A stretch of 64,000 bases of DNA from Elusimicrobiota bacterium (GCA_041694815.1 JBGFSC010000047.1:23362-87361); one strand, 5' to 3'; positions 15,099 to 56,591 are shown, counted from the first letter of the stretch. The notes: generated from the letters alone by a model not told the origin. Numbers and translations: made by a program.

Positions 15099-15099
15099 G

Positions 15100-18891: not shown

Positions 18892-19142
18892 ATAATGCCC
18901 GCTTTGGACGGGCGATTTTGAGGCGAGGCAAGGAGCGAGGAGCGCCACGTACCTGGAAGGTACGCAAGCGACGAGCGACGCAGCCGCAGCCCAAAAGCGA
19001 CCGAATACCGGCCTGAGCCCATCTTTGGCCGGCCGCGTCGTTGCGCCTCGCTCACAGGCCTACAGGCCTGCTCGCTCGGCGCGCCTAGCGGCCGTCTCAA
19101 AGCTAGGCTCCCAAAGCGAGCATTATATGTCGGTCGCAGCAC
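18876..19142. repeat. 32-bp inverted repeats (1 mismatch) flanking a 203-bp segment; invertible-promoter-like element or MITE
   Basis: left arm 18876-18907 (GTGCTGCGACCGACATATAATGCCCGCTTTGG) and right arm 19111-19142 are reverse complements except one C/T. Each arm carries a TATAAT box and an ATGTCGGTCGCAGC start segment. Confidence 0.75.
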
Positions 19143-20088: not shown

Positions 20089-20121
20089 CGCCGGCCAAAG
20101 GCATTTGCTAACATTTTAGTA

Positions 20122-30335: not shown

Positions 30336-31273
30336 TCCAACGGGTGCTGGTCACGGGAGGCGCGGGCTATATCGGCTCGGTGCTGGTCCCGCTGCTTTTG
30401 GAGCGGGGCTTTAAGGTCACGGTGCTCGATAATTTCCTCTACGGGCAAAACAGCCTGCTCGACTGCTGCGGGCGCGAGGGATTCGAGATCGTGCGCGGCG
30501 ATTGCCGCGACGAGCGCCTTCTCTCCGAGCAGCTCAGGAACGCGGATATACTCATTCCCCTGGCCGCGCTGGTGGGCGTCCCGGCCTGCGACCGGGACCC
30601 CGTCGCCGCCGAGACCACCAACCTGGGGGCCGTGCGCTCACTCTGCAAGCTCGCCTCCAAATCGCAGCGGATGCTGTTCCCGGTAACCAACAGCGGCTAT
30701 GGGATCGGCGTGAAGGGCAAGGCCTGCACCGAAGAAAGCCCTCTCAAGCCGCTCTCGCTCTACGGCCGCACCAAGGTGCAGGCCGAGGAGGCGGTGCTCT
30801 CTCGCGGCAATTCCATCGCCTTCCGCCTGGCCACCGCCTTCGGCGCCTCGCCGCGCATGCGCATGGACCTGCTCGTCAACGATTTCGTCCACCGCGCCGT
30901 CAGCGACCGCGCCGTCGTGGTGTTCGAGGGGCATTTTCAGCGCAATTACATCCATGTCCGCGACATTGCCCGAGTCTTTTTGCACGGCATCGAGCGCTTC
31001 GACTCGATGCAGGGCAGGCCCTACAATGTCGGCCTCGAGGACGCCAATCTCTCCAAGCTCGAGCTCTGCGCCATGATCCAAAAAATCGTGCCGCAATTCG
31101 TGTTCGTCGAGGCCCCGGTGGGCGAGGACCCGGACAAGCGCGATTACATCGTCTCCAACGCGCGGCTTTTGTCGACGGGGTTTAAACCCGAGTGGAGCTT
31201 GGAGCGGGGGATACGGGAACTGGTTAAGGCGTATAAGATACTCAAGGGTTTTAATCCTTATGCCAACGCATAA
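30332..31273 (+). CDS. SDR nucleotide-sugar 4-ketoreductase/epimerase (RfbJ/ColC-like)
   Basis: VTGGAGYIGS; YGRTKVQAEE. Confidence 0.5.
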   Translation: MIQRVLVTGGAGYIGSVLVPLLLERGFKVTVLDNFLYGQNSLLDCCGREGFEIVRGDCRDERLLSEQLRNADILIPLAALVGVPACDRDPVAAETTNLGAVRSLCKLASKSQRMLFPVTNSGYGIGVKGKACTEESPLKPLSLYGRTKVQAEEAVLSRGNSIAFRLATAFGASPRMRMDLLVNDFVHRAVSDRAVVVFEGHFQRNYIHVRDIARVFLHGIERFDSMQGRPYNVGLEDANLSKLELCAMIQKIVPQFVFVEAPVGEDPDKRDYIVSNARLLSTGFKPEWSLERGIRELVKAYKILKGFNPYANA

Positions 31274-31282
31274 ACGGCGGCC

Positions 31283-32293
31283 ATGATCATCAGCCGAACC
31301 CCCTTCCGCATGTCCTTCTTCGGCGGCGGGACCGATTACCCCGCCTGGTTCCGCGAGAACGGCGGCTGCGTGCTGTCGACGACGATCAACAAGTACTGCT
31401 ACATTACCTGTCGCTACCTGCCCCCCTTCTTCGACTACCGCAGCCGCATCCTCTACTCCAAGGTCGAGACGGTGCAGGACAACGGAGACATCGAGCACCC
31501 GGCGGTGCGCGCCATCCTCAAGCATTTAGACATTAGCCAGGGAGTCGAAATCCATCATGACGGAGATCTTCCCGCCCGCACGGGACTGGGCTCCTCCTCT
31601 TCCTTCGCGGTCGGCCTGCTGCACGCCCTGCGCGCCATGCGGCATCAGCCCCGCGATAAGATGCAATTGGCGCAGGAGGCCATACACATCGAGCAGGAGA
31701 TCCTCCAGGAAAACGTCGGCTGCCAGGACCAGGTGATCGCCGCCGTAGGAGGCCTCAATCGCATCGATTTCCATCCCAACGGAAAGATCGATGTCGACCC
31801 CGTCACCATCAGCCCCGCGCGGCTCTGCGAACTACAGGAGCACCTCCTGCTCTATTTCACCGGCTTTTCCCGCATCGCCTCCCTGATCGTGAAGGAGCAG
31901 CTCAACCGCATACAGGACACGAAGGCCCAGCTCAAGCGCATGCAGGCCATGGTGCGCGAGTCGATCGACATACTCAGCGGCGGCGACCTCGCGGATTTCG
32001 GCCGGCTGCTCGATGAGGGTTGGTCACTCAAGCGCACGCTGAGCTCGAAGGTCTCCTCGCCCTTCATTGACGAGATTTACGAGAACGCCAAGGCCTGCGG
32101 CGCCCTGGGCGGAAAGCTGCTTGGAGCCGGGGGAGGTGGCTTCATGCTGATCTTCGCCCGCCCTCAGGACCAGCCGAAGATCAAGGAGCGCCTCAAGAAG
32201 CTCATGCGCATCCCTTTCCAGATCGAAGACGACGGAAGCCGCATCATCCTCTACCAACCGGACGCGCAAGACGGCGCACTTCCTGAATCTTGA
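31283..32293 (+). CDS. hddA: D-glycero-D-manno-heptose 7-phosphate kinase-like GHMP kinase
   Basis: MIISRTPFRMSFFGGGTDYP N-terminus and GLGSSSSFAVGLLHAL GHMP motif. Confidence 0.7.
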   Translation: MIISRTPFRMSFFGGGTDYPAWFRENGGCVLSTTINKYCYITCRYLPPFFDYRSRILYSKVETVQDNGDIEHPAVRAILKHLDISQGVEIHHDGDLPARTGLGSSSSFAVGLLHALRAMRHQPRDKMQLAQEAIHIEQEILQENVGCQDQVIAAVGGLNRIDFHPNGKIDVDPVTISPARLCELQEHLLLYFTGFSRIASLIVKEQLNRIQDTKAQLKRMQAMVRESIDILSGGDLADFGRLLDEGWSLKRTLSSKVSSPFIDEIYENAKACGALGGKLLGAGGGGFMLIFARPQDQPKIKERLKKLMRIPFQIEDDGSRIILYQPDAQDGALPES

Positions 32294-32976
32294 TGGTGGA
32301 TGCCGTTATCCTCTGCGGCGGGCTCGGCACGCGGCTGCGCGAGGCGGTGCCGGACCGGCCCAAGCCCATGGCCGACGTGGGCGGCAGGCCGTTTTTGGAG
32401 CTGTTGGTCGACTGGGTCGCCGGTCAGGGCTTTAATCGGATCATACTCTGCGTGGGCCATCGAGCGGACATGGTGCGGGCGCATTTTCGCTCGGACTCGC
32501 GCCGCGAGATCCTATTCTCCGAGGAAAGGGAGCCTCTAGGGACCGGAGGGGCCCTGCGCCTGTGCCGTCCGCATGGCGCGAGCGATCCTTTCCTGGTACT
32601 CAACGGCGATTCTTTCTGCGACATAGACCTTCACGCGATGCTTCAGTTCCACGCGGAGAAGAAGGCCGCTGCCACGGTGGCGGCGGTGCGCCCGGACGGG
32701 CGCGAGGATGGGGGCAATATCGCGGCGGGCACGGACATGCGGGTTTCGGCCTTCGCCGAGAAAAAGAAAACCGAAGGCGCCGCTTGGCTCAACGCCGGGG
32801 TCTACGCCTTGGGCTCCCGCGTATGGGACTTCATTCCTCCAGGGCGCAGCTCCTTAGAAACGGACGTGCTGCCCAAGATGCTCCTTGCCGGCGTCTACGT
32901 GTTCGCCACGAGCGCGACCCTCTTCGATATCGGCACTCCCGCGCGGCTGGAGGCCTTCCGCCGCTTGAGGTCATGA
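32290..32976 (+). CDS. hddC: heptose-1-phosphate guanylyltransferase-like nucleotidyltransferase
   Basis: AVILCGGLGTRLRE...PKPM nucleotidyltransferase signature; translationally coupled to hddA. Confidence 0.65.
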   Translation: MMVDAVILCGGLGTRLREAVPDRPKPMADVGGRPFLELLVDWVAGQGFNRIILCVGHRADMVRAHFRSDSRREILFSEEREPLGTGGALRLCRPHGASDPFLVLNGDSFCDIDLHAMLQFHAEKKAAATVAAVRPDGREDGGNIAAGTDMRVSAFAEKKKTEGAAWLNAGVYALGSRVWDFIPPGRSSLETDVLPKMLLAGVYVFATSATLFDIGTPARLEAFRRLRS

Positions 32977-34886
32977 ACCTACTCTTCATCTGCCACGAGC
33001 TTCCACCCATCGGGGGAGGCTCTGGCAACGCGGCCCTGGCCTTGGCCCGCGAGCTTGCCGTGGAGCACTCCGTGGTGCTGCTCACTTCCGGCTATCGCGA
33101 GTTGCCGGCTCAAGAACGGCATGGACAACTCCGCGTGCTGCGCTTGCCATCACCCAGGCGTCGCGTCGACGGAGCCAGCCCCATTGAACTCGTCGCCTTC
33201 GCGGCCCTCGCCGTCCGGGAGGCCTCGCGCCTGCATCGCGAACGACCCTTCGACGCCGCCGTCGCGGTGCACGCCACCGCGGCCGCATGGGCGGCGTGGC
33301 TCTTGCGCAAGCGGCGCGGCATTCCCTACGTGCTCGCTTTGAGGGGTGCCGACGTGCCAGGCTTCTTCCCGGAAATGTACGGCTGGATGCACCGAGCATC
33401 CTCCTGGCTCACTCGGCGATGTTGGGGCAGCGCCGCGGCGCTGGTGGCCAACAGCGAGGGCTTAAAACGGCTGGCCGAACGCACCGCCGCGCCCTTGGGA
33501 CGCGCCGTTAAGCTTATCGAAAACGGCGTCGACGCGGATTTCTTCACGCCCGCGGCTTCCATGCCCCAGGGGCAGGGCCTGTTCGTCGGAAGGCTGAGCC
33601 GGCAGAAGGGCCTCGAGCCGTTCTTCGAAGCGCTGCGCCTCGGCGCGCCGAGGCTGCGCGGCCGGCTGCGCCTTGAGATCGTAGGCGTAGGGGAATTGGC
33701 AAGCACATTAAGTCGCCTGGCCGAGGACGGCTTGGCCGACATCGTCTCTTTTTCCCCATGGATGGACAAGGAAGCGCTGCGTGAAAGATACCGGGCATCC
33801 TCCTTTTTCGTTTTTCCGTCGTTGGAGGAAGGCATGTCCAACGCCCTGCTCGAGGCGATGGCCTGCGGGCTCCCGGTACTGGCCGCCGACGTCTACGGCA
33901 ACAAGGGCTTGGTCGAAAACGGGGTCAACGGCTTCCTCATCCCGCCTGATGATCCGGCCGCCTGGGCCGAAGCCCTCTACCGCATGGCGGCCCTGGAACC
34001 CACCGCCCTTAAGTCCATGGGCCAAAAAAGCCGCCAGAAGGCGCTGGGCAAGAGTTGGGGAGAGGCGGCGCGCCGCTATGAATCACTGCTGCCCCATCCC
34101 GCCGCGTGGACCCCCGAGCGCGTCGCGCGTTTCTTCGACCTGTATCAGGCCCAGGGCGGGCTAGAGGATAACTATTTCGGGAGGCAGAGGGGAGCTGCCC
34201 TGCTGCGTTTCGTGCTCCGCCGAAGCCTCCTGCCGCAGCCGGCGCTCGATGTCGGCTGCGGTCCCGGCTATTTTCTCGAGTATCTGGTCGCCGCGCGGAT
34301 CCGCTGCGCCGGCGCCGACCTGTCGGCGGCCTCCGTCGAGCGGGCGAACCGGCGGCTGGGCGGAAATCCATATTTCCTGGGGGCGCACCGGATGGGCGAT
34401 GGCTTTGCGCTCCCCTTCGAGGACGGGGCCTTCCAAAGCGCCTTCCTGATGGAGACGGCCGAGCATCTGCTGCCGGAGTCGATTGCGGCCGTGTTCGGCG
34501 AGCTCCGCCGGGTATTGGCGCCGGGTGGCCGCCTGGTGGTCACTACGCCTTACCGCGAGGACCTGCGGGATTCCTCTTTGCTATGCCCGCATTGCGGCGC
34601 CACCTTCCACCAGATCCAGCATGTCTCTTCCTTCGACGAACGCAACCTGCCGGAGCTGCTCGAGAGCCACGGCTTTTCCTGCGAGCTGGCCGAGGCACCA
34701 GCGCTTCTTCCAGACTGGCGCATCTGGCTTCGGGCGCAGGGTGGACTCGGGGCATCGGCGGCGGCATGCCCCGAATGCGGGAAGGCCTTCGCGCCGCCCG
34801 CTCCGGGCCTCCTAAAACGGGCGCGGATGCTGCTTCGGGAGCTGCGCCATCTAGTCTGCGTGGCGCACCGGGCGCCTGGCAAGTAG
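32973..34886 (+). CDS. GT4 glycosyltransferase fused to a C-terminal SAM-dependent methyltransferase domain
   Basis: EGMSNALLEAMACGLPVLAADV GT4 signature; later LDVGCGPGYFLEYL SAM motif; ATG 32973 (ATGA overlap with hddC). Confidence 0.7.
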   Translation: MNLLFICHELPPIGGGSGNAALALARELAVEHSVVLLTSGYRELPAQERHGQLRVLRLPSPRRRVDGASPIELVAFAALAVREASRLHRERPFDAAVAVHATAAAWAAWLLRKRRGIPYVLALRGADVPGFFPEMYGWMHRASSWLTRRCWGSAAALVANSEGLKRLAERTAAPLGRAVKLIENGVDADFFTPAASMPQGQGLFVGRLSRQKGLEPFFEALRLGAPRLRGRLRLEIVGVGELASTLSRLAEDGLADIVSFSPWMDKEALRERYRASSFFVFPSLEEGMSNALLEAMACGLPVLAADVYGNKGLVENGVNGFLIPPDDPAAWAEALYRMAALEPTALKSMGQKSRQKALGKSWGEAARRYESLLPHPAAWTPERVARFFDLYQAQGGLEDNYFGRQRGAALLRFVLRRSLLPQPALDVGCGPGYFLEYLVAARIRCAGADLSAASVERANRRLGGNPYFLGAHRMGDGFALPFEDGAFQSAFLMETAEHLLPESIAAVFGELRRVLAPGGRLVVTTPYREDLRDSSLLCPHCGATFHQIQHVSSFDERNLPELLESHGFSCELAEAPALLPDWRIWLRAQGGLGASAAACPECGKAFAPPAPGLLKRARMLLRELRHLVCVAHRAPGK

Positions 34887-35684
34887 GACCGCAGACGTAA
34901 CTTTCAAAGACTCGTCCTTTGGGTTAAAGTCTGTGCTCAAATAGGGCCGAATCCGCTCGAAGGCCTCTTCGTCGCTGGCACGCTCAAGGACTTCCACCAC
35001 GAATCCTTCAGACGACAGCAGGCGCAAGTGATCTGAAAGCCGCCAGCGAGGGAGATCGCCGGGATCGAGCCAACGACCCCAATGTTTCCGGGAGAACTGA
35101 AGAAAATGATAGGGATATTTGAAGAAGTGATCGCGATAGTCGACGATGTGAAGCATGAAGCCGTCTAACTTAAGCACCCGCCGAAGCTCGACGAAGAGGT
35201 CTCGAGGATCCCTCACGTGCTCGAGCACCGAATGAGAGAGCGCGACATCTATGCTTTCGCTGGCAATGGCGCGAATGGAGTCCAGCCGGCGCACTTTAGA
35301 ACCCAACGCCGACTCCGTCAAGCCATGACGCTCACACGCTTTCGAAAGCAGGCTCCGGTCCAGGCGCGCGTCTAATTCGGCCGTGGGCTCTAGCCCCCAT
35401 ACGGCTAGAGCGTCGCGCGCTGCCAATTCGTAGGCGGTGCCATTGGCATGCCCCGCCCCGATTTCCAGCACGCTCAGGCCTCGGAACGACAATCCGGCAG
35501 CAGTCAGGTGCTTCTCGTAGAGCGAAACCACCTCTTCCGGGACGCTCTCACCGAGGCTGGGCTCATAATAAGGCAGAAACGAGGAGAGCCTGCGGACGGC
35601 ATGCTCGCTCAAAAGAAACTTGCGAACCAGTCGGAGAGCGATATACTCGGCATTTTCCACGATTCTCACTTGGAGGCAGCCCAA
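34851..35684 (-). CDS. class I SAM-dependent methyltransferase
   Basis: VLEIGAGHANGTAYELA motif I. Confidence 0.6.
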   Translation of the reverse strand: MGCLQVRIVENAEYIALRLVRKFLLSEHAVRRLSSFLPYYEPSLGESVPEEVVSLYEKHLTAAGLSFRGLSVLEIGAGHANGTAYELAARDALAVWGLEPTAELDARLDRSLLSKACERHGLTESALGSKVRRLDSIRAIASESIDVALSHSVLEHVRDPRDLFVELRRVLKLDGFMLHIVDYRDHFFKYPYHFLQFSRKHWGRWLDPGDLPRWRLSDHLRLLSSEGFVVEVLERASDEEAFERIRPYLSTDFNPKDESLKVTSAVLLARRPVRHAD

Positions 35685-36889
35685 GGAAGGGATTCGGTGG
35701 AACGCCGCTCCGACAACGCCCAGGCGCCCAGGATCCAGAAGAAAGGCAGAGCTGAAAGATGGTAGCGTGGGATCGCCCAGTCGTTGGTGATATGGAGCGA
35801 CGCGTATAGAATGGGGCCCCCCAAGAGGAGTTGCTCACGCCAGCGACGTCGCAGCCGCCAGGCCCCCCATAGGCCGAAGGCCAGGGTCACCGACTGTAGG
35901 ATGAGCAGGGCCCCTTTAAAGGCCAGCGGGAGCCAGCGGTGCGCGGTGAAATACTCTTGGTTAGTGAGATTGATGCGGAATATCCCGCAGTGGCTCGTAA
36001 TCCAGAACTTGGCCAGGCGATAGGGCATCAACGACAGCAGCCTCGGCCAATTCGAGCTCCAATTACGGATCGCGAGCTCGCGGAAATGACGGTCGCCATC
36101 GGCGCTGTTGAAGTCCCCTTGTGGTCGAGCAGCGAGCGTCTCTTGGAAGTCGTAAGGGTAGTGCTCGAGAGAGCCGATCCACCAGGCATGGCCGGCGTCA
36201 CCGCTTACGGAAGTCCAGCTATGAAAGCGCAGGCGGTTGCGGACGGCCCACGGGGCGAGCGTAGACAGAAAACATATGAAGAAAACCGCCCAGAGCGCTG
36301 CACGCCGCCGCCAGGCTCCCCCCAACGATAAGAGGGGCAATAGACCCAGGGCGTAGAATTGATGCGCGGGCCGGCAGAGCACGGCGGCGCCAAGGAGCAG
36401 CCCCGCCATGGCGTAGAGCGACGCCTTCTCGCGCTTGGCGGCGCGGACGATGACAACGGTGAAGAGTAACCAAAGATTGAAGAATAAGGTCTCCGAGAGC
36501 AGATAGGCGCTCATACCCACAAAGAGGGGATGCAAGGCATAGATAAGGCCGCAGGCCAAGGCCGGTCCCCAAGCCATGAAGGCGGCGGCGATCAGCGCGA
36601 CCCAGATCGTGCTCAGGGAGTCGACGACCGCCTGAGCACCCAGGACGGGCTCGATCCGGCCGCCGGCCAGGCGGAAAAAGCAGGAGACGAACAACGGGTA
36701 AAGCGGAGGGCGGCGCAGGGTAGGCGCCGTGCCGTCGATCGTAAATCCCTGCCCTTGGGCCAGATGCACCCCTATGCGGACGTAGTCGTAGCTGTCGGGC
36801 ATGAGCGGGTCGATCGCCCGCGAGCCGATGACGGCGACGCGCACGGAAAAAGCGACCAGAAAGAGAAGGGCGGCGCGTTTAAACGGCAC
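35666..36889 (-). CDS. GT-C family membrane glycosyltransferase (ArnT/GT39-like)
   Basis: N-terminal TM then periplasmic DSYDYVRIG loop motif; about 10 TM helices. Confidence 0.5.
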   Translation of the reverse strand: MPFKRAALLFLVAFSVRVAVIGSRAIDPLMPDSYDYVRIGVHLAQGQGFTIDGTAPTLRRPPLYPLFVSCFFRLAGGRIEPVLGAQAVVDSLSTIWVALIAAAFMAWGPALACGLIYALHPLFVGMSAYLLSETLFFNLWLLFTVVIVRAAKREKASLYAMAGLLLGAAVLCRPAHQFYALGLLPLLSLGGAWRRRAALWAVFFICFLSTLAPWAVRNRLRFHSWTSVSGDAGHAWWIGSLEHYPYDFQETLAARPQGDFNSADGDRHFRELAIRNWSSNWPRLLSLMPYRLAKFWITSHCGIFRINLTNQEYFTAHRWLPLAFKGALLILQSVTLAFGLWGAWRLRRRWREQLLLGGPILYASLHITNDWAIPRYHLSALPFFWILGAWALSERRSTESLPWAASK

Positions 36890-38645
36890 GGGAGACGCTC
36901 CTGGCGGGGCGGGGCTTGGGCTGCGCGGACGGATTGACGGCGATGAAATCGCCGAGGGCCAACACGTCGAGATGGCCCTGCGAGAAGGCGCGCAACGCGT
37001 CGGAGGGCGAGCATACGATGGGCTCCTCGTGCATGTTGAAGCTGGTGTTGATGAGCACGGACAGCCCGGAACGTTTCTTGTACTCTTGGAGCACCTTAGC
37101 CATCGACGGGTTGATCCGCTCCTCGACCACTTGGGGACGCGCCGTCCCGTCGATATGCACCGTCGCCGGCGCCTCCTTTCTGCAGCGCTCCGTCGTATCG
37201 TAGGTGATCGTCATGAACTCGGCGGGATAGGCCGTCTTCTCGCCGTAACCCTTGAGGTATTTGCCGGCATCCTCCCGCAGCAGTATCGGAGCAAAGGGCA
37301 TGAACTCGGAGCGCTTGAGCCGGTCGTTGAGCCAGTCATTGATGGAGGGATCTGTGCCGTGGCAAAGGATGGAACGGTTGGCCAGCGCCCGAGGACCGTA
37401 CTCCATCCTTCCAGCCACCCGCGCCACCACCTTCCCGGAGGCGAGCTGCTCGGCGATCTCCCGCTCCACCTCTGGGGATTTGTGGAACGGAAATGGGTTG
37501 CGCCGCAGCTCTTCCTCGATCGCCTTGTCGGAATACTCCGAACCCAGGTAGACGTCCTTGAGCCGAAAGGGCCTGGCCTTCGCGCCCGCCTTGTTCATCA
37601 GCTCTGCGTTATGCCCCAGCGCGGCGCCCAACGGGATCCCACCGTCGCCCATGTTGGGGTGTATGAAAACGCTCTCTACCCCGTCTATTTCCGCGACCCG
37701 CTGGTTGAGCCGCACATTGGCGAAGACGCCTCCCGCCAGGACCAGATCGTGGATACCCGCGTCGGCGATCATCGTCTTGAGGTAGGCGGTGACCAATTCC
37801 TCGAGATGGGCCTGTATCCCCGCGGCGATATCCTCGCGGCTGAACCCCTTGAGCAGCTTTTTGAGCCTCTCGGTCTCGTGGCGGAAGAATCGACCTTGAT
37901 TAAAAAACGAGCGCCGACTAGGGTCGTAGCGGATCTCCGCCTCGAAAATCTTCTTGGTGGCCGCAGGGTCGCCGGCGGCGGCCAAGCCCGTGATCTTGCC
38001 CTCGTGCCGGCCGGGGATGAAGCCGCAGAGATAGGTAACGTACAGGTAGTAAAAGCCGATCGAATGGAACTCCGGGATCTGGAAGAACGGGGTCATGGCG
38101 CCATCCTGGCCCAGGAAGACGCGCGAACAGTAGCCGTCCCCGGCCCCGTCTACCGTCACGACGAGCGCGCGGTCCTTAGCCCCCGTGTAATAGGCCGAAT
38201 AGGCGTGCGCCGTGTGATGGTCATGGAAGGAGATCGGCGCCGAGATGCCGAAGCCGCGACGGATGAGCTCCTCGAAGCCCTCCCAGCGCTTGTTGGGCGC
38301 GGCGCGGTAGAGCGCGTTGCATACCTCGATGCCCCACACCGTGCCGAACATGTACTTGAGCAGCCCGAGCCGCTCGAAGAAATCGACCGCCTGAAAGCCC
38401 TTGGTCTTAAAATCGCCGAGGATGAAATCTTCCCAGGCCTGATTCTTGCCGGCGATGACCACGTGCTCGACCTCGGACGGCTTGATCCCGGTGTGGCGGA
38501 AGGCCTCGGCCAGGCACTTCTCTGGGAAGCCCGCGTAGCCCTTGACGCGGTTGTAGCGCTCCTCGTTGGCCGCGAAGAGTATGCCCATGCCGTCGACTAA
38601 CGCGACCCCAGCCTCGTGGCCGAAATGCAGGCCGAGCGTGATCAT
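36879..38645 (-). CDS. carbamoyltransferase (NodU/CmcH family)
   Basis: MITLGLHFGHEAGVALV N-terminus, Kae1/YgjD-like fold blocks; start moved to ATG 38645 (ATGA overlap) because the ORF-track extension overlaps the upstream gene. Confidence 0.7.
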   Translation of the reverse strand: MITLGLHFGHEAGVALVDGMGILFAANEERYNRVKGYAGFPEKCLAEAFRHTGIKPSEVEHVVIAGKNQAWEDFILGDFKTKGFQAVDFFERLGLLKYMFGTVWGIEVCNALYRAAPNKRWEGFEELIRRGFGISAPISFHDHHTAHAYSAYYTGAKDRALVVTVDGAGDGYCSRVFLGQDGAMTPFFQIPEFHSIGFYYLYVTYLCGFIPGRHEGKITGLAAAGDPAATKKIFEAEIRYDPSRRSFFNQGRFFRHETERLKKLLKGFSREDIAAGIQAHLEELVTAYLKTMIADAGIHDLVLAGGVFANVRLNQRVAEIDGVESVFIHPNMGDGGIPLGAALGHNAELMNKAGAKARPFRLKDVYLGSEYSDKAIEEELRRNPFPFHKSPEVEREIAEQLASGKVVARVAGRMEYGPRALANRSILCHGTDPSINDWLNDRLKRSEFMPFAPILLREDAGKYLKGYGEKTAYPAEFMTITYDTTERCRKEAPATVHIDGTARPQVVEERINPSMAKVLQEYKKRSGLSVLINTSFNMHEEPIVCSPSDALRAFSQGHLDVLALGDFIAVNPSAQPKPRPARSVSRAV

Positions 38646-39727
38646 TTGTAGTTGGGGCAGCCGACGCACTCCGGTGGCTGCTTGTCGTAGAAGTCCGCCC
38701 GGAAGCGTCGGAAGGCCTCCGAATTCCATATCTCCGAGAACGGGGTCTCGAAGATGTTGCCCATATTGAGCACCGAGGGGTTGTAGATCGTGCAGCAGGG
38801 GGTCACGTAGCCCTCGGCGGTCACCAGAGGGCTGAACCAGGGAAGCTGGCATTGGCCGAGATCGTTGGAGGACTCGCCGAAGGCCTCGGTGATGATCTCG
38901 ATGCGACGCCCGACCCTCCACCCGCGCAATTTATCGAGGAAGGCCTCGACCTCCGGCCGGCTTAGGCAGGACTCGCCGACCACGGCGTCTCCCAGCGTGT
39001 TGTTGAGCAGCTGGACGTAGAGCACGTCGACGCCGATCTGCTCAGAGCGAGCCACGAGATCCTCCATGGCCGGGGCCGTCTCCTTCATGAGTATCGCACG
39101 AAAGGAAAGCAGTGGCCTACGCGCGCCGGCCGCGCGGCGCAACTCCACGAAGCGCGCGACGTTCTCGGCGATCTTCTTGATCGAGGCACCGGCGCGGGTG
39201 TAGGCGAATATCTCCTCGTCGAAGCTATTGACCGAGACGGAGAGGTTCGTCAAGCCGGCCTCGATCATCTCCCGGGACTTGTTCTCGGTCAGGGCGGTGC
39301 CGTTGCTGTTGAAATAGGTCGATATGCCGCGCTCAGTGCAGTAACGGATGATGCGGGCTGTGTCCTTGTTGAGCAGCGGCTCGCCGATACCCTGCACGAC
39401 CACGTAGACGAGGTTGGGAAATTGATCGAGGACATGCCTGGCCTGCTCGAAGCTCATGTCCGCCTTCTGGTAGCCGTTGTAGGCCAGGCTGGGGGTCCCG
39501 AGAGGGCAGGTATTGCAGGTGAGGTTGCAGCGGTTGGTGACCTCCAGAAATAGGCATGGGGGCGAATACCCGACGCTGGGCGGGTGGCGCCGCCGCGCCA
39601 CCTGCGCCGAAACGCGGGCCAGATTGAGCAGTCCCGACACTCCCTGATGCGCGACGACGCGAGTCAGAAGACCCGGACCGACCTGCCGGTCGAGCTTCTC
39701 CTTGAGCCGCAGCAGATAGCCGATCAT
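38642..39727 (-). CDS. radical SAM protein with SPASM/twitch C-terminal domain
   Basis: CNLTCNTC (CxxxCxxC) cluster motif; C-terminal Cys-rich TPCCTIY...ECVGCPNY. Confidence 0.75.
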   Translation of the reverse strand: MIGYLLRLKEKLDRQVGPGLLTRVVAHQGVSGLLNLARVSAQVARRRHPPSVGYSPPCLFLEVTNRCNLTCNTCPLGTPSLAYNGYQKADMSFEQARHVLDQFPNLVYVVVQGIGEPLLNKDTARIIRYCTERGISTYFNSNGTALTENKSREMIEAGLTNLSVSVNSFDEEIFAYTRAGASIKKIAENVARFVELRRAAGARRPLLSFRAILMKETAPAMEDLVARSEQIGVDVLYVQLLNNTLGDAVVGESCLSRPEVEAFLDKLRGWRVGRRIEIITEAFGESSNDLGQCQLPWFSPLVTAEGYVTPCCTIYNPSVLNMGNIFETPFSEIWNSEAFRRFRADFYDKQPPECVGCPNYK

Positions 39728-39753: not shown

Positions 39754-41397
39754 CTAACGGCGGGGCAGGGCGTAGAGGCGTATCGCGGGGCCGGTGCGCC
39801 GCCCACGCTCCGGGAAGAACTCGGCCAGAAGCCGTCCCTGGCGCTCGAGCCCCCCGACGAAAGCGAAGAATTCCGATAGGCCCCAAGCCCCGAAGCCCGT
39901 AAGCGCCACGTACTCGACTCCAGCCTTTTTGGCCGCCGCGAGGCCGCCACGCACGTCGAGCACCGGCTGCGCCGCCGCCGAGAAGGCGGCGTGGCCGGGA
40001 TAGGAACGCAGGTCCCGGTAATCACGCGCGACGCGGTATATGTCGTAACCCCCACCCGGATGCCCCGCCAGCATCATCTCGTAAAGCTTCTTCTTCGGAT
40101 GGCCCGCGCGCGCGGTCTGCTCGAGCAGGCGCTCGAGCATCGCACGGCTGAGGGGCAGGCGGGGCGAGGCGTGCTCCTGGTCGAGCAGTAGCACCGACGG
40201 CTGGGGGATATGCTCGAGCATCCAGGCGGCCGAGAGCGTTCTCGTGTCGGGGAGAAGCAACACCCGGTCGAAGGCCGCGCTGGCCCAAAACCCAGGCAGG
40301 GACGCGGCGAGCGCGACGGCTGCCGGCCACAGGCGATGCCGGGTCCAGGAAGGGCCGCGCGCCGCCCAGGACAGGACGGCGTCGACGCCCGCGGAGGCGG
40401 CGAAAGCGAGCCCGCCGAAGCAGGCGATGAGATACCGGAGCCAGGAACCGTCCGGCGAGCCAGAAAGCGCCAGCACGAAGGCGCCGATCGGCAGCAGCAC
40501 GAGCAAGGCCCATTCGCGGCGCGCGCGCAGCATGGTCAGGACGCCGAGCAATAAAAGCGCTCCGCCCGTCGGCCAAGGCCCGGAAAAGAGCCATATATTG
40601 CGCAGCACCGTCTTGGCCCCCACCGGCTCTCCGACGCGGCCTAACGCCATCATATCCTCCACGGCGAGGCGGAAGGCCGGGAAATCAAGGAACAGGTAGG
40701 GAGAACCGATGAAAAGCGCCGCCGCGAGAAAACCATAGGCCGCGGCCAGGTCACGGAATTTGGCGGCCCCGGCGCGCAGCCGCCGCGACAGGAATGCCGC
40801 CAGGGGCAGCGCCCCCAACGGCAGGGCGGTGTATTGCGTCGCGAAGCAGAAGCCGACGAAAGCCCCGCATAGCCACAGGTCCCGCCGCTTTCCGTCGAGG
40901 ACGAAGCGCAGCGCGAAGGCCCAAGCGCAGGCCGACAGGAAAAAGAGCATCGACTCCGGCTTGCTCGCGTGCGCCGCCTCCACCAGCACCGGCGCGGCGG
41001 CCAGGAGCGCTGCCGCCGTCCACGCCGCGGTCCGGCCCCAGGCGCGGCGGCAGCTTGAATAGACGACGGCGATGGCCGCCACGGAAAACGAGGCGGCGAG
41101 CACACGCCCGATCAGCACGAAGGAACCCGGATCCCAGGCGAACAGGACGCCGAAATCCCGCACGCTCCTGAGGAGACCAAGGCCGGACCAGATTAGGTAG
41201 TAGATGCCGTAGGCGGCGAATAGCACGTACATCCACAACGTCGGATACTTGAAGAGATGGGGATGGAGGTTGCCGCCGCCGAAGGATACCGCGATGCTGA
41301 CGAAATGGGGCTCGTCGGCGTTAAAAATCGCGGGAAGGCCGTAATGGATCGCCGTCAGGCGCAGCGCTGCCGCGACGGCGAGGATCGCCCAAAACAT
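39754..41397 (-). CDS. GT-C family membrane glycosyltransferase (ArnT-like)
   Basis: FNADEPHF periplasmic-loop motif, >10 TM helices; start either 41397 (MFWAIL) or 41454. Confidence 0.5.
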   Translation of the reverse strand: MFWAILAVAAALRLTAIHYGLPAIFNADEPHFVSIAVSFGGGNLHPHLFKYPTLWMYVLFAAYGIYYLIWSGLGLLRSVRDFGVLFAWDPGSFVLIGRVLAASFSVAAIAVVYSSCRRAWGRTAAWTAAALLAAAPVLVEAAHASKPESMLFFLSACAWAFALRFVLDGKRRDLWLCGAFVGFCFATQYTALPLGALPLAAFLSRRLRAGAAKFRDLAAAYGFLAAALFIGSPYLFLDFPAFRLAVEDMMALGRVGEPVGAKTVLRNIWLFSGPWPTGGALLLLGVLTMLRARREWALLVLLPIGAFVLALSGSPDGSWLRYLIACFGGLAFAASAGVDAVLSWAARGPSWTRHRLWPAAVALAASLPGFWASAAFDRVLLLPDTRTLSAAWMLEHIPQPSVLLLDQEHASPRLPLSRAMLERLLEQTARAGHPKKKLYEMMLAGHPGGGYDIYRVARDYRDLRSYPGHAAFSAAAQPVLDVRGGLAAAKKAGVEYVALTGFGAWGLSEFFAFVGGLERQGRLLAEFFPERGRRTGPAIRLYALPRR

Positions 41398-42703
41398 GAA
41401 GACGTTATTATACAATTTGCCCGTGCAACGCCTGGCGGCGGCCGCCGCGCGCATCCCCGAGACGGCCTCTTTCGCCCTGGCCCTGATCCTGCGGCTGGCC
41501 TTCGCGGCGGCGTTGGGGCATCGCCTCTATCAGATCGACGAAGGCGCCTTCGACGCGGCCGCGAGAAGCTTGGCGGCCTCGGGAACCCTCGGCCCTACGC
41601 CGACGGTGCTCGCCCCGCTGCCCCCTCTTTTCTTCTCGCTTTTCTATCGGCTCGCCTCGACCCCCCTGGCCCCCCGCCTGGCCCAAGCCGCGCTCGGGGC
41701 GCTGTTCGTGCTCTTGCTGGGCCGGGCGGTCCGGGACATCTCCCGCTCCGAGGCGGCGGGGAGAATCGCCGCGGCGCTCGCCGCTATCTACCCCTTTTAC
41801 GTCTACTATTGCGGGATGCTCATGAGCGAGACCCTTTATCTTTTCTTCTCGGTCGCCGGGCTCTGGGCCTTCTGCCGCCTGCTGCGCGGCGGCGGGAGGA
41901 TGCTCGACGCCTTGGGGGCGGGAGGCGGGCTGGCGGCGGCTGCCCTCTGCCGCACCGAGGCTGCGCCGATCGCGGTACTCGTGTTCGCCGCGGCCGCGGG
42001 ATTCTGCGCGCGGCGCCTGCTTTCCCGCAGGCTTTGGGCCGCGGCGCTTTTCGCCTGGCTGCTGCCGCTGTCCTTATGGTGCGCCCGAAACCGCGCCGAA
42101 ACCGGGAGATTCACGCTCGATACGCACGGAGGCATCACGCTGCTGCACGGCACGCTGCTCTTCGAGCATAATGAGATCGATACCGAGGAAGCCATGCGGA
42201 TTTTTCGCCAAACACCCTTATACCAGGCGACGCGCGGACTGCCCGAGGCTGATCAGGACGCGGCCTTCCGGCGCGCGGCTTTCGAGCATATGCTCGAGAA
42301 CCCGCGCCGCACCCTGGGCCAGTGGGCACGCAAAAGCGTGAGTTTCTGGCGCTTCTACCCGCGCGTGGATAAGGCCTACGCCCAAAGCCCCACCAGCAAA
42401 CCGGACATGGGGCTGGGCCGCTGGGCCTTGGTGGCCGTCAGCCTACTTTTTGAGCCCTGGCTGATATTGCTGGGGGCCTTCGGCTTCTGGGCCCGCGGCC
42501 GGAAGGCGGAGTGGCTGCCTTTGTGGCTGTTCGTGCTGGCCACGATGGGCATACACGTGCTCAGCGTCAGTCAGATGCGTTACCGGCTGGCGGTGACACC
42601 CTGGTTGATGCTCGCCTGCGCTACCATGGCCACCAGCGCTCCCGGCGCGCGGGAGTCGCCAGGGCCGAGTGGAGCGCATCAAGAACGGAAGAGATCTTGG
42701 TGA
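41396..42703 (+). CDS. GT-C family membrane glycosyltransferase (ArnT-like)
   Basis: YQIDEGAFD loop motif; multiple TM helices; divergent from the previous gene with overlapping CATG start codons. Confidence 0.45.
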   Translation: MKTLLYNLPVQRLAAAAARIPETASFALALILRLAFAAALGHRLYQIDEGAFDAAARSLAASGTLGPTPTVLAPLPPLFFSLFYRLASTPLAPRLAQAALGALFVLLLGRAVRDISRSEAAGRIAAALAAIYPFYVYYCGMLMSETLYLFFSVAGLWAFCRLLRGGGRMLDALGAGGGLAAAALCRTEAAPIAVLVFAAAAGFCARRLLSRRLWAAALFAWLLPLSLWCARNRAETGRFTLDTHGGITLLHGTLLFEHNEIDTEEAMRIFRQTPLYQATRGLPEADQDAAFRRAAFEHMLENPRRTLGQWARKSVSFWRFYPRVDKAYAQSPTSKPDMGLGRWALVAVSLLFEPWLILLGAFGFWARGRKAEWLPLWLFVLATMGIHVLSVSQMRYRLAVTPWLMLACATMATSAPGARESPGPSGAHQERKRSW

Positions 42704-43619
42704 CATCCTCTCCCCGACATCCGTCCTGGGGACAGACCTTCGACACCATGCAATCGCTGTTGGCATAGCGGTAATCGGGCTCACCGCGCACAAGGACTCC
42801 TTCGATCTGCAGCGTCCTGGCGTTGAATACGGCGCTGCCTGAGTTGCCGTGATAGGTATCCAGATCGGTGACAAAATATCCCCGCGGGGAGGAGTCCCGC
42901 ACGGAGGCGCCTCCCGATACCTTGGTCGGGATGCCGGAAGGATGGCCGATGACGAGCAGGGGCGTCCCGTTTTCGATATGCCCGGTTTCGTTGACTCCGA
43001 GAGGCGCATGACCCTTCACGGGACGGTCCAAACGAACGAGCGCCCAATCGGACCCGTCCTCATAGATTCCCGTAAGATAATCGTACTCGTCCCTGCCGTA
43101 CTGGGGGAAACGGGTGCTGACCAGCCCGGCGCAGCCGTAGACCTCGCTCAACGGCACGGCCAGAGGGGCGTACCCCCTCTTTTTGATTTCGAAGCCGAAC
43201 ACGAATTTCGTGCGATAGCAGCTGTCTTGCGTCGGCACGCAATGGCCCGCCGTCAGCACCAGGTCCGGCCCGACCAGCGCGCCGGAGCAGAACGCCCCCG
43301 TCGGCTGGTCGAAAAACGGCTCCTCCGAGCATAGCCTGAATTCATGCCCGAAGACGTCCGTCTTAAGGAAAGCCCAAAAATCGCCCGGGATCATGGGACT
43401 CGAGAATCGGCGCGGGCGTCTCTGCGTCACGTTATCGGCGTTGAATAAGGCGACCGTCGAATCCGCCAGCCTTCGGATTTCTGGGTCGTCGATCTCGTAG
43501 AGGTCCTTGCGGTCATCCTGCCCGTAAATGACGGGCGGCGGCCTTTTCGGCTCCGAAAGCTCCTGCGCCGAAGCCCCGAAGTCCATCATAAACGCTAATG
43601 CCGCAAACAAGGTTCTCAT
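42621..43619 (-). CDS. secreted trypsin-like (S1B, V8/glutamyl-endopeptidase-like) serine protease, paralog 1
   Basis: signal peptide MRTLFAALAFMMDFGASA; catalytic LTAGHC (His), DWALVRLD (Asp), GNSGSAV (Ser). Confidence 0.7.
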   Translation of the reverse strand: MRTLFAALAFMMDFGASAQELSEPKRPPPVIYGQDDRKDLYEIDDPEIRRLADSTVALFNADNVTQRRPRRFSSPMIPGDFWAFLKTDVFGHEFRLCSEEPFFDQPTGAFCSGALVGPDLVLTAGHCVPTQDSCYRTKFVFGFEIKKRGYAPLAVPLSEVYGCAGLVSTRFPQYGRDEYDYLTGIYEDGSDWALVRLDRPVKGHAPLGVNETGHIENGTPLLVIGHPSGIPTKVSGGASVRDSSPRGYFVTDLDTYHGNSGSAVFNARTLQIEGVLVRGEPDYRYANSDCMVSKVCPQDGCRGEDVTKISSVLDALHSALATPARRERWWPW

Positions 43620-43620
43620 A

Positions 43621-44643
43621 TCAATCACACATGAGCGCCTGACCCGTCTCGCAATCGTGATGACAGCCATGGGCGAAATAGGTCTTCGAACCCTCCAGGC
43701 ACATACGCGGCAGGCCGAGCGCCTCGATGGCCCCCAGCCGAACCACCCCGATGCCAGTCCCGCCATCCGGGTCGTAGGCCTTGAAGGTCCAGCAGTCCCT
43801 GCCGGCGTCATACGCGTAATCGCCGTCGTAGCTAAACGAGATAATCCCCTCGATTAAACCCGTATTCCGGTTGAACACCCCGCTGCCCGAGTTTCCGTGA
43901 AAAGCATCGATCGCCGCCATGAAATGGTTTACTGGGCTGTCGTCTCGCACCGCTCCATTGTCGGCGATCTTGGTGGGCAGGCCCGAGGGATGGCCGATGA
44001 CGACGAGCGGCGTGCCGACCGGGATATGCGCGCTGACGTTCATGCCGATCGGCTCATGGCCTGCGACGGGCCGATCCAAGCGTATGAGCGCGTAATCCTT
44101 CTTGACGGCCCAGTCCATTTGGCGCTCGACCAGCTCGGCGCAATCGTACACCTCCTCGGTCGGCGCGGTCGAGGGGTATTCCCCTTCGCGCCTGACCGCG
44201 AAGCCGAATACGAATTTGGTGGCTGCGCATTCCTCCTGGTCGCGGACGCAATGGCCCGCGGTCAGGATCCGGTCCGGGGCGATCAAGAAACCCGAGCAGA
44301 ACGGCCCCAGGGGTTGGTCGTAGAAGCGCTCTCCCTGGCAAAGGGGGTGCCCTTCCCACAACGGAAGCTGATCGTCGGCCGGCAGGTCGGGGTTGAAAAC
44401 GGGCATGTAAAGCGTAGCCGCGCTGTAGAGCTCCGTCTTGAGCGCCCACCCACCCTCGATCGGCATCAATTCCTCGGCATCGAAAAGCCCCACCGTGGAG
44501 TCGGCCAAGCGCAGCAGCATGGGGTCACGGACTTCATATAGGTCCTTGCGATCGTCGACCCCGTAAATCACCTTGGGGGGCCTGGCTTGCGCCGAGGCGG
44601 CCAGAATCGCGAGCGCCCCGAGCGCTCCGAAAACCCTCACCAC
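43621..44643 (-). CDS. secreted S1B serine protease, paralog 2
   Basis: TAGHCV, DYALIRLD, GNSGSGV; GTG start at 44643 gives signal peptide MVRVFGALGALAILAASAQA. Confidence 0.65.
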   Translation of the reverse strand: MVRVFGALGALAILAASAQARPPKVIYGVDDRKDLYEVRDPMLLRLADSTVGLFDAEELMPIEGGWALKTELYSAATLYMPVFNPDLPADDQLPLWEGHPLCQGERFYDQPLGPFCSGFLIAPDRILTAGHCVRDQEECAATKFVFGFAVRREGEYPSTAPTEEVYDCAELVERQMDWAVKKDYALIRLDRPVAGHEPIGMNVSAHIPVGTPLVVIGHPSGLPTKIADNGAVRDDSPVNHFMAAIDAFHGNSGSGVFNRNTGLIEGIISFSYDGDYAYDAGRDCWTFKAYDPDGGTGIGVVRLGAIEALGLPRMCLEGSKTYFAHGCHHDCETGQALMCD

Positions 44644-49601: not shown

Positions 49602-49689
49602 GCCGCTAATACGTAACAGGAACTTCAAAAAAATGCAATACATTCTTAGGTGCCTGGGCGAAAGTCAATCCCTGGCACCTAGGCCACGC

Positions 49690-53279: not shown

Positions 53280-53287
53280 CTTAGCAA

Positions 53288-56588: not shown

Positions 56589-56591
56589 GAC

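Follow-up and report, generated by a model that had tools for sequence, protein, structure and literature searches.

A Twitch-type radical SAM enzyme and a class III carbamoyltransferase in one operon of an Elusimicrobiota envelope-glycan island

The operon and its surroundings

We analysed a 64,000-nucleotide stretch of DNA from an Elusimicrobiota bacterium (the window), in which the genes for a radical SAM enzyme (rSAM) and a carbamoyltransferase (CT) lie side by side in a five-gene operon. The gene order is PMT_2 GT-C, rSAM, CT, PMT_2 GT-C and methyltransferase, with successive junctions of +26, -4, -11 and -19 bp, such that the 566-aa GT-C gene ends 26 bp upstream of the rSAM gene and the 407-aa GT-C-like gene overlaps the 3' end of the CT gene by 11 bp (Table 1). 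No terminator-like signal above chance was observed in the operon.

Table 1. Features of the operon and of the two enzymes, in window coordinates
Feature	Position	Strand	Basis or assignment
Radical SAM (rSAM) gene, 361 aa	38642-39727	(-)	uncharacterised BtrN-like Twitch/partial-SPASM clade
Carbamoyltransferase (CT) gene, 588 aa	36879-38645	(-)	class III TobZ/NovN/GdmN/NodU-type, Pfam and PDB matches
ATGA start/stop overlap, rSAM/CT	38642..38645	(-)	read from sequence
Predicted PMT_2-type GT-C membrane glycosyltransferase, 566 aa	39754..41454	(-)	operon gene 1; Pfam PMT_2
Short PMT_2-type GT-C-like membrane protein, 407 aa	35666..36889	(-)	Pfam PMT_2 E=5e-10
Class I SAM methyltransferase, 277 aa	34851..35684	(-)	final operon gene; Pfam Methyltransf_11/23/12
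Agl23-like/GT-C-like membrane protein, 435 aa	41396..42703	(+), divergent	NCBIfam TIGR03663 (Agl23) E=5e-9, below cutoff
CNLTCNTC, CxxxCxxC motif (C67, C71, C74), aa 67-74	39506-39529	(-)	translation
Twitch-like auxiliary-cluster region, C293-x12-G306-x4-C311(C312)...C354-x2-C357	38657..38851	(-)	translation

The junction between the rSAM and CT genes reads TACAAATGATCACG, in which the ATG of the CT (38645-38643) overlaps the TGA of the rSAM (38644-38642), and both start codons are backed by homologue alignments. The identities of the two enzymes and their operonic linkage, as given in an earlier note, were borne out by the open reading frames, the Pfam and PDB matches and the ATGA overlap. 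The same note described the genes as a translationally coupled pair. The overlap is real, but a dedicated pairing was not supported, with adjacency in none of the sampled relatives. The same 4-bp ATGA overlap also occurs in this window at 29352, 30332 and 45548, with TTGA at 32290; it is generic here and marks co-transcription, not a particular partnership.

An envelope-glycan island of ~50 kb surrounds the operon, in agreement with the placement of the pair inside a sugar island. It comprises GT2, GT4 and seven PMT_2 GT-C genes, together with sugar-nucleotide and related genes (SDR epimerases/dehydratases, DegT aminotransferases, GHMP kinases and NTP transferases). HddA/HddC/GmhB-like genes, all scoring below cutoffs, give a hint of heptose chemistry in the window. 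Both operon PMT_2 proteins score above the Pfam gathering threshold, if modestly (E=2e-9 and 38 bits for the 566-aa protein, where gathering requires 26), and a PDB sequence search with the two returned no match. A CT-containing Elusimicrobia cluster (L087) encodes, ahead of a methyltransferase, a 401-aa PMT_2 protein with which the 407-aa protein shares 27% identity (E=6e-23). There is no GT2 gene inside the operon. One at 20089-21012, 15 kb away and adjoining another PMT_2 gene, matches ArnC (5e-15), DPMS (2e-10) and GtrB (2e-7) and is assigned to the polyprenyl-phosphate glycosyltransferases of the ArnC/GtrB/DPMS type. A phmmer search with three references found no LPG_synthase_TM homologue in the window.

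Assignment of the two enzymes

The CT has the class III O-carbamoyltransferase architecture, a Kae1-like N-domain and a YrdC-like C-domain, matched by Pfam Carbam_trans_N (E=4e-38, residues 5-343) and Carbam_trans_C (E=4e-57, residues 398-568). Its PDB alignments to NovN (4e-63), TobZ (3e-58) and GdmN (6e-50) are near full-length. H10, H143-x3-H147, D166 (19 residues past H147) and D334 are invariant in 16 homologues. They were matched to GdmN H27, H133/H137, D156 and D333 on the strength of identical spacing and of their conservation, without superposing structures, and would supply the catalytic His and the metal ligands (two His, two Asp). The protein is expected to be an ATP- and carbamoyl-phosphate-dependent O-carbamoyltransferase with a carbamoyl-AMP mechanism. 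It resembles the characterised TobZ, NovN, GdmN, NodU and CmcH enzymes in its domains, catalytic His and H-x3-H, D, D metal ligands, but is only ~30–40% related to them. Assignment as a NodU equivalog was rejected (129.9 bits on NCBIfam NF041651 against a cutoff of 1000). Its clade is very large, uncharacterised and environmental (4934 matches at E<=1e-30), and its members occur in clusters for glycans, not in those for antibiotics.

The rSAM matches Pfam Radical_SAM (PF04055, E=5e-18) and SPASM (PF13186, E=6.5e-16), both above gathering, and has the CxxxCxxC motif and partial TIM-barrel core of the radical SAM superfamily. The motif cysteines C67, C71 and C74 are invariant across 67 homologues and are the predicted ligands of the SAM-binding [4Fe-4S] cluster. 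Of the earlier description, CxxxCxxC plus a Cys-rich SPASM tail, the motif and the Cys-rich end stand, but the tail is Twitch-like. It has only five cysteines (C293, C311, C312, C354 and C357), the stop falling four residues past C357, and all but C312 are invariant in the 67 homologues, where no other C-terminal cysteine is (numbering in that alignment is the true position minus 1). The seven-Cys SPASM motif reads CX9-15GX4C-gap-CX2CX5CX3C-gap-C (PMC6231123). The second half of this full motif, which serves two auxiliary clusters, is absent from the rSAM C-terminus, and the Pfam SPASM model still matches because it spans the shared first half. The first four Cys positions are the arrangement of Twitch enzymes like BtrN, with one auxiliary cluster fully ligated (PMC6231123, PMC9012708). 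The rSAM has cysteines at these four positions, the first two cysteines in the C-terminal domain of BtrN are aligned with its C293 and C311, and DSSP assigns a short strand and helices to the region in the AF2 model (pLDDT 94). Judged by this pattern, the tail corresponds to a shortened, BtrN-like Twitch domain that is predicted to bind one auxiliary cluster.

A search for the nearest characterised subfamily, with the rSAM family profile against the PDB, placed BtrN first (E=3e-35), with PqqE, CteB, SkfB and SuiB at 1e-20 to 1e-22. BtrN is the butirosin 2-deoxy-scyllo-inosamine dehydrogenase and the founding Twitch-domain radical SAM enzyme. The two proteins share the CxxxCxxC core and a truncated four-Cys SPASM domain (CX12GX4C...CX2C) for one fully ligated auxiliary cluster, predicted in the case of the rSAM, and the carbohydrate-like carbinol that BtrN oxidises is comparable to the substrate we propose below. 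The rSAM is ~110 residues longer than BtrN (~250 aa). Its N-terminus is extended by 55 aa that form two helices, and further residues are inserted ahead of the Twitch domain. Its context is GT-C/GT2 envelope glycosylation, with no aminoglycoside (btr) genes nearby. The protein was rejected as a BtrN orthologue (DOIA dehydrogenase) at 28% identity over 188 aligned residues, with no aminoglycoside genes in the window. A B12-dependent or other radical SAM methylase was likewise rejected; the rSAM has no B12-binding Pfam match and no match to a methylase family in Pfam or NCBIfam, making C-methylation, one of the reactions previously suggested, unlikely.

No NCBIfam model reaches its cutoff on the rSAM (best 114 bits against 380). 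The top matches are nevertheless maturase models, namely the tungsten-cofactor oxidoreductase maturase (114 bits) and rSAM_Geo_metal (111 bits), which would fit a peptide or protein maturase (RiPP, anSME-like or metalloenzyme-cofactor) unrelated to sugars, its glycan context being coincidental. These scores are far under the cutoffs of 380–400, however, and the family profile favours BtrN by ~12 orders of magnitude. The RRE is a three-stranded sheet plus a helical bundle (PMC6231123); in the rSAM model, residues 1-55 contain two helices (2-15 and 19-42) and no strand (pLDDT 88–96), so an RRE is absent. There is no intergenic room for a precursor ORF, with gene models tiling 27943-49664 and leaving gaps of 9, 26 and 128 bp. 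Across ~75 related loci we found no peptidase, transporter or precursor signature but GT2, LPG_synthase_TM, GT-C-like, methyltransferase and aminotransferase genes, and the fusions of rSAM relatives to GT2 and GT87 described below also speak against a peptide maturase. Grouping with peptide-maturation SPASM enzymes alongside a nearby RiPP precursor, which the earlier note named as the outcome that would overturn it, was thus not what was found, and we give a maturase very little credence.

Gene neighbourhoods of related enzymes

The rSAM family is recurrently linked to glycosyltransferases. LPG_synthase_TM, which we take to be the Pfam family of the MprF flippase region and of HpnL too, adjoins the rSAM gene in all ten close relatives, whose loci also all contain large DUF2298-like membrane proteins. 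It does so again in L050, which carries a 45%-identical rSAM orthologue and, ~4 kb off, a 44%-identical methyltransferase orthologue. Among 37 mid-distance relatives, a GT2 gene is adjacent in 14 and somewhere in the locus in 21, while aminotransferases or methyltransferases are adjacent in distant relatives. Fusion proteins were observed that join an rSAM to a GT2 (P0474, laid out as GT2, hydrophobic segment and rSAM), to a GT87 GT-C (P0467) and to a GNAT domain (P0349). The neighbourhoods of CT relatives hold mostly GT4, SDR, GT2, methyltransferase, LPG_synthase_TM and PMT_2 genes.

Among the sampled loci, only this window has the two genes side by side. A CT lies 7–9 kb away in two of the ten closest rSAM loci and is found nowhere within 10 kb in the rest, and a SPASM-type rSAM stands next to the CT in none of 80 metagenomic CT loci. 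Together with the generic ATGA overlaps and with conserved rSAM partners that are LPG_synthase_TM, GT2 and methyltransferases, not CT, these counts argue that the two genes may be neighbours through operon shuffling only, sharing an island but serving different sugars or unrelated steps, with no combined radical and carbamoyl residue. Their relatives are also phylogenetically discordant. The nearest rSAM relatives are Melainabacteria (~60% identity), while those of the CT and of DapA are Elusimicrobia, which suggests that the rSAM gene was acquired and inserted, and is a further point in favour of shuffling. Against it, the combination recurs in an independent lineage: in L086, the operon of the closest CT homologue (51% identity) also encodes a Twitch-type rSAM (26% identity), with a single methyltransferase gene between the two. 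L095 and L144-L146 have an rSAM of a different type immediately next to the CT, a CT belongs to the same cluster in 2 of the 10 Melainabacteria loci, and the five operon genes are tightly packed with zero internal regulatory space. Weighing both sides, we consider shuffling alone a real but minority possibility.

Proposed function and comparison with known systems

We start from what was observed: the identities of the genes, their catalytic motifs, the structure of the operon, its glycan context and the recurrent link of the rSAM family to glycosyltransferases. Our main reading, at a probability of roughly 0.6, is that the rSAM and the CT work in the cytoplasm as tailoring enzymes, encoded by an operon of five genes within an island of GT2/GT-C lipid-linked monosaccharide modules. 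A sugar would be activated as an NDP-sugar, and an ArnC/DPMS-like GT2 probably moves it onto polyprenyl phosphate or another membrane lipid. The Twitch-type rSAM would cleave SAM, the 5'-deoxyadenosyl radical abstracting H from a sugar carbinol C-H, and, by analogy with BtrN, the single fully Cys-ligated auxiliary [4Fe-4S] cluster would accept the second electron. The product would be a keto-sugar, which could keep its oxidation state, give an epimer on re-reduction or undergo transamination. The CT would form carbamoyl-AMP from ATP and carbamoyl phosphate and then O-carbamoylate a free hydroxyl, and the methyltransferase may contribute a methyl group. Once flipped, the decorated sugar would be passed to an outer-face acceptor by the flanking PMT_2 GT-C enzymes. 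We infer what reaction takes place, in which order the steps follow, that the substrate is lipid-linked and that one sugar is the target of both enzymes. The predicted pairing of O-carbamoylation with a radical modification of the glycan retains its enzymes and its glycan context but loses C-methylation. Counting against the proposal, the window is without LPG_synthase_TM, the partner invariant in close rSAM relatives; the pair is adjacent in this window only among the sampled loci, and the enzymes may serve different sugars or steps; the operon has no GT2 gene of its own; its two PMT_2 proteins score only modestly in Pfam and have no PDB match; and the helical extension and insertion of the rSAM are missing from BtrN.

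The target could instead be the head group of a membrane glycolipid (compare hopanoid HpnI/J/K/L and archaeal Cds) rather than a polysaccharide or polyprenyl donor; the rSAM would remodel it, perhaps contracting the ring or oxidising it, and the CT would carbamoylate it. The invariant LPG_synthase_TM neighbour of close rSAM relatives, the P0474 fusion with its hydrophobic segment, and the precedents of Cds and HpnJ, rSAMs that act on lipid-linked sugars (PMC13459092), all point in this direction. We nevertheless regard a glycolipid as improbable. The window contains no squalene-hopene cyclase or lipid-synthesis genes and, again, no LPG_synthase_TM was found there; its seven GT-C genes, WecA-like GT4-family gene and sugar-nucleotide genes are typical of glycan assembly; and neither HpnJ nor Cds is among the top NCBIfam or PDB matches of the rSAM. 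HpnJ (hopanoid cyclitol ether) and Cds (calditol synthase) do resemble the tailoring we propose in that a radical enzyme follows a glycosyltransferase on a membrane-bound sugar, and in the LPG_synthase_TM-type membrane proteins that neighbour relatives of the window rSAM. They differ in having no detectable specific sequence relationship to it, and hopanoid/GDGT genes are absent from the window.

For the carbamoyl step, WapO (PA5005) carbamoylates LPS core sugars of Pseudomonas aeruginosa (PMC13552734). As a carbamoyltransferase decorating an envelope glycan, it is a precedent by function, and no rSAM partner is described there. Parallels in layout are the multi-component transmembrane glycosylation systems, GtrA/B/C, ArnC/E/F/T and CsbB/GtcA/YfhO, and the three-component pentofuranose systems with a DprE-like epimerase step. 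A tailoring step by an rSAM and a CT is not known for such systems, and no recognised flippase is present in the window operon. The window pairs ArnC/DPMS-like GT2 genes with PMT_2 genes of putative GT-C type, and by analogy with these systems, a lipid-linked monosaccharide would be modified before GT-C transfer (PMC11127046, PMC8035078).

A broader and more speculative idea, which we think unlikely but worth stating, is that the rSAM clade represents a new step in extracytoplasmic glycosylation, with a membrane-tethered or membrane-associated Twitch rSAM oxidising or epimerising a polyprenyl-P- or lipid-linked monosaccharide at the cytoplasmic face and dedicated GT-C enzymes transferring the donor, in this window also carbamoylated and methylated, to the envelope. 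Such a lipid-linked-sugar system would then have its genomic signature in the fusions of rSAM to GT2 and GT87 and in the invariant LPG_synthase_TM neighbour. If true, this would be a radical counterpart of DprE1/DprE2, which convert decaprenyl-P-ribose to decaprenyl-P-arabinose, and would yield a new lipid-linked donor.

The gene pair and its operon

By translation, the radical SAM protein (rSAM, 361 aa) and the carbamoyltransferase (CT, 588 aa) form the middle of five tightly spaced co-directional genes, preceded by a PMT_2 GT-C gene and followed by genes for a short PMT_2 protein and a class I methyltransferase, with junctions of +26, -4, -11 and -19 bp. Pfam finds Radical_SAM (E=5e-18) and SPASM (E=6.5e-16) in rSAM, and Carbam_trans_N (E=4e-38) and Carbam_trans_C (E=4e-57) in CT, and the gene calls are solid. 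At the rSAM/CT junction, TACAAATGATCACG, the ATG of the downstream CT (38645-38643) overlaps the rSAM TGA (38644-38642). Since both N-termini align with those of homologues, the starts and the overlap are real, and the ATGA link proposed in the earlier note holds. It is ordinary for the window, where the same 4-bp overlap recurs three times (29352, 30332 and 45548) and position 32290 has a TTGA counterpart. Scans of the operon region yielded no promoter or terminator signal above chance and no Rfam match, and a PDB sequence search with the two operon PMT_2 proteins gave no match. The 3' end of the operon methyltransferase gene convergently overlaps, by 36 bp, that of a 774-aa fusion of GT4 with a C-terminal class I methyltransferase domain, leaving no space for terminators.

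Judged by its sequence, CT is a clear class III carbamoyltransferase, with near-full-length PDB alignments to NovN (4e-63), TobZ (3e-58) and GdmN (6e-50). Residues H10, H143-x3-H147, D166 and D334 are invariant across 16 homologues and match in spacing the catalytic His27 and the iron ligands H133, H137, D156 and D333 of GdmN (PMC9633730). By analogy, CT is expected to form carbamoyl-AMP from ATP and carbamoyl phosphate and then transfer the carbamoyl group to a hydroxyl. Assignment as a NodU equivalog was rejected (130 bits, with the cutoff at 1000). The CT clade is very large and environmental (4934 matches at E<=1e-30), and neighbouring genes sampled at 80 metagenomic loci included GT4 (27), SDR (23), GT2 (15), LPG_synthase_TM (7) and PMT_2 (4) genes, along with methyltransferases and two kinds of radical SAM genes. 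CT is thus an ordinary glycan-cluster carbamoyltransferase, adding one more member to an already known family. Its product would be a rare but precedented decoration that alters surface-sugar charge and hydrogen bonding; WapO provides the precedent for carbamoylated envelope sugars, and core carbamoylation in P. aeruginosa influences colistin resistance (PMC13552734).

Class and relatives of the radical SAM protein

The earlier note read rSAM as a CxxxCxxC protein with a Cys-rich SPASM tail. The first motif stands, as CNLTCNTC at aa 67-74, while the tail is better described as Twitch. A full SPASM domain has the motif CX9-15GX4C-gap-CX2CX5CX3C-gap-C and ligates two clusters; Twitch is a truncated SPASM that carries a single cluster, which in BtrN is fully ligated by four Cys (PMC6231123, PMC9012708). 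In rSAM only CX12GX4C...CX2C is present before the protein ends four residues further on, which places it with Twitch and not SPASM. BtrN was also the best solved relative in a single-sequence PDB search (1e-8), with C293 and C311 of rSAM aligning with the first two cysteines of the BtrN C-terminal domain. The family profile again ranked BtrN first (3e-35), ahead of PqqE (1e-22), CteB/SkfB (1e-20), SuiB (4e-20), DesII (2e-19) and BlsE (6e-19), and no NCBIfam model matched rSAM at or above its cutoff. The protein is therefore inside the Twitch subgroup and outside every characterised family, and we know of no characterised member of its clade.

An exhaustive search at E<=1e-30 placed rSAM in a clade of ~250 clusters at 50% identity (cluster representatives), from Melainabacteria, Chloroflexota, Chlorobi, Desulfovibrionales, Omnitrophota and archaea as well as the window's Elusimicrobiota genome. 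The closest relatives (58-62% identity) come from groundwater Melainabacteria/Caenarcanales MAGs; all others are at 45% or less. Among 10 loci of these close relatives, LPG_synthase_TM directly adjoins and 3-5 DUF2298-like proteins of ~750 aa occur in 10/10, a downstream methyltransferase, GMPPB-like NTP transferase and SDR are found in 6/10, and a CT (42-43% identical to that of the window) lies 7-9 kb off in 2/10. One Rhodospirillales MAG locus (rSAM 45%) has LPG_synthase_TM directly upstream, Wzy_C, MBOAT, GT4 and GT2 genes, and a 44%-identical orthologue of the window methyltransferase ~4 kb from the rSAM relative. GT2 adjoins 14 of 37 mid-distance relatives (27-37%) and is within the locus in 21. 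The GT2 beside Chloroflexota relatives is ambiguous in class, as GpgS, DPMS and ArnC all match it. At 26 loci of distant relatives (<=26%), a DegT aminotransferase adjoins in four and a methyltransferase in five. Fusions join rSAM to GT2 plus a hydrophobic segment (P0474, whose GT2 domain received no classification), to a GT87 (GT-C) fragment (P0467) and to a GNAT (Acetyltransf_6) domain (P0349). The clade is consistently tied to GT2, GT-C-like, LPG_synthase_TM, methyltransferase and aminotransferase genes, and rSAM belongs to a glycoconjugate-associated, BtrN-like Twitch family. The family also has several multi-copy tandem rSAM proteins, 800-1900 aa long.

The rival reading, in which rSAM is a RiPP or protein maturase, would group it with peptide-maturation enzymes near a precursor gene. 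BtrN is the closest solved relative, and a structure model, which lacks Met1, shows a pair of helices over the N-terminal 55 residues and no RRE. Between 27943 and 49664 the gene models are separated by gaps of just 9, 26 and 128 bp, which leaves no precursor space, and the glycan context recurs in ~75 related loci. No precursor-peptide or peptide-export signature was found in the related rSAM/CT loci. On the evidence at hand, the maturase reading is effectively excluded.

The rSAM-CT adjacency was not found among relatives at 80 genome and 80 metagenome loci, and is unique to the window among the loci sampled. At locus L086, a single methyltransferase gene separates the closest CT homologue (51%) from a 26%-identical Twitch-type rSAM, and the operon also includes GT2, LPG_synthase_TM, SDR and aminotransferase genes. 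A different rSAM type (~460 aa, PF04055 only, no SPASM) directly adjoins CT homologues at five metagenomic and Elusimicrobia loci (L087, L095, L144, L145 and L146). Pairing of CT with a radical enzyme thus recurs, with rSAM partners that are non-homologous. The nearest named relatives of CT are in Elusimicrobia, as are all named homologues of DapA at 60-72% identity (Elusimicrobia/Elusimicrobiota), whereas those nearest to rSAM are all Melainabacteria/Caenarcanales MAGs; this sequence affinity suggests that rSAM was horizontally acquired. The DapA matches point to a high-GC Elusimicrobiota MAG as the probable source of the window.

The surrounding glycan island

The earlier note's placement of the pair inside a sugar island was borne out by the GT-C, GT2, SDR, DegT and kinase/NTP-transferase genes around it. 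The island spans ~13.7 kb to the window end, and holds seven PMT_2/Agl23-like GT-C membrane protein genes within the 64 kb. Two of its four GT2 genes directly adjoin a PMT_2 gene, and the one searched against the PDB is ArnC/DPMS/GtrB-like. Modules for lipid-linked-monosaccharide glycosylation are thus unusually dense in the window. LPG_synthase_TM, invariant in the close rSAM relatives, was sought in the window by phmmer with three references and none was found. The island also has one WecA-like Glycos_transf_4 gene, one GT4-methyltransferase fusion, five SDR epimerase/dehydratase genes, two DegT aminotransferase genes and two HddA-like GHMP kinase and NTP-transferase sets. The best NCBIfam matches of both sets, all below cutoff, are GDP-D-glycero-D-manno-heptose pathway enzymes. 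Together with the dehydratase and reductase adjoining one of them, these sets may encode a (6-deoxy)heptose-type nucleotide sugar pathway.

Features of the window, by position
Feature	Positions	Strand	Remarks
DapA	12149-13048		
Amino_oxidase/NAD_binding_8 flavoprotein	13734-15131	-	brackets island
PMT_2/Agl23-like GT-C	16137-18200	-	
GT2	18130-19059		adjoins PMT_2
GT2	20089-21012		adjoins PMT_2; PDB-searched
PMT_2/Agl23-like GT-C	20373-22784	+	
E1 alpha-like	25911-27161	+	
GMD-like 4,6-dehydratase and reductase	29352-31273		adjoin next set
GHMP kinase/NTP-transferase set	31283-32976	+	HddA-like
GT4-methyltransferase fusion	32562-34886	+	
Class I methyltransferase	34851-35684	-	operon; Pfam
Short PMT_2 (GT-C)	35666-36889	-	operon; Pfam
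CT	36879-38645	-	operon
rSAM	38642-39727	-	operon
PMT_2 GT-C	39754-41454	-	operon; Pfam
PMT_2/Agl23-like GT-C	41396-42703	+	
Four Trypsin_2 genes	42621-46618	-	tandem paralogues
447-aa ORF	46747-48090	-	no Pfam match
CarboxypepD_reg/Por_Secre_tail protein	47775-49664	-	T9SS sorting domain
446-aa ORF	49693-51030	-	GT2 domain, residues 208-339
ORF	50098-51492	+	high GC3; no Pfam match
GHMP kinase/NTP-transferase set	51031-53423	-	HddA-like; NTP transferase fused to GmhB-like HAD phosphatase
Two PmbA/TldD-like genes	53288-56591		
PMT_2/Agl23-like GT-C	58119-59612	-	
PMT_2/Agl23-like GT-C	60945-62693	-	
Amino_oxidase/NAD_binding_8 flavoprotein	62638-63999	-	brackets island

Sugar epimerase, GT2 and DegT genes surround one that resembles the alpha subunit of TPP-dependent E1 dehydrogenases. 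Its score against the PDH E1 alpha model is 294 bits, below the cutoff of 394, and its presence could hint at a sugar with a branched chain or an acyl modification. The four trypsin-like peptidase genes are followed by the 447-aa ORF and the gene for the CarboxypepD_reg/Por_Secre_tail protein. The gene model at 49693-51492 is ambiguous because opposite-strand ORFs overlap there.

Proposed chemistry and known systems

BtrN and anSME suggest, by analogy, that rSAM would most likely abstract H from a sugar carbinol and then oxidise it by two electrons to a ketone. Reduction of that ketone to an epimer, or its transamination, could follow. The fully ligated auxiliary clusters of those two enzymes are proposed electron acceptors (PMC9012708, PMC6231123). 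The DegT genes adjoining distant rSAM relatives echo the logic of BtrN/BtrS. BtrS is itself a DegT family member. Radical C-methylation, which had been listed among the candidate modifications, was rejected, as rSAM lacks a B12 domain and matches no methylase family in Pfam or NCBIfam.

The cofactors needed, SAM and a reductant for rSAM, ATP and carbamoyl phosphate for CT, are cytoplasmic, so both enzymes must work there, ahead of flipping and GT-C transfer. Given the membrane-protein neighbours and glycosyltransferase fusions, a lipid-linked substrate is an attractive inference. The two enzymes may share one target residue. The functional theme of glycoconjugate tailoring is well supported by context. 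Should this be merely one more tailoring pair, its value would be that of routine annotation; the rSAM clade is a concrete entry to possibly widespread radical tailoring of envelope glycoconjugates in uncultured bacteria.

Sugar-directed radical SAM chemistry is known chiefly from antibiotic pathways (BtrN, DesII, AprD4, BlsE), a context that differs from the GT2, GT-C and LPG_synthase_TM surroundings of rSAM. HpnJ and Cds, radical SAM enzymes that remodel lipid-bound sugars, offer a functional analogy only (PMC13459092), and so do the multi-component GT2/flippase/GT-C systems (PMC11127046, PMC8035078).
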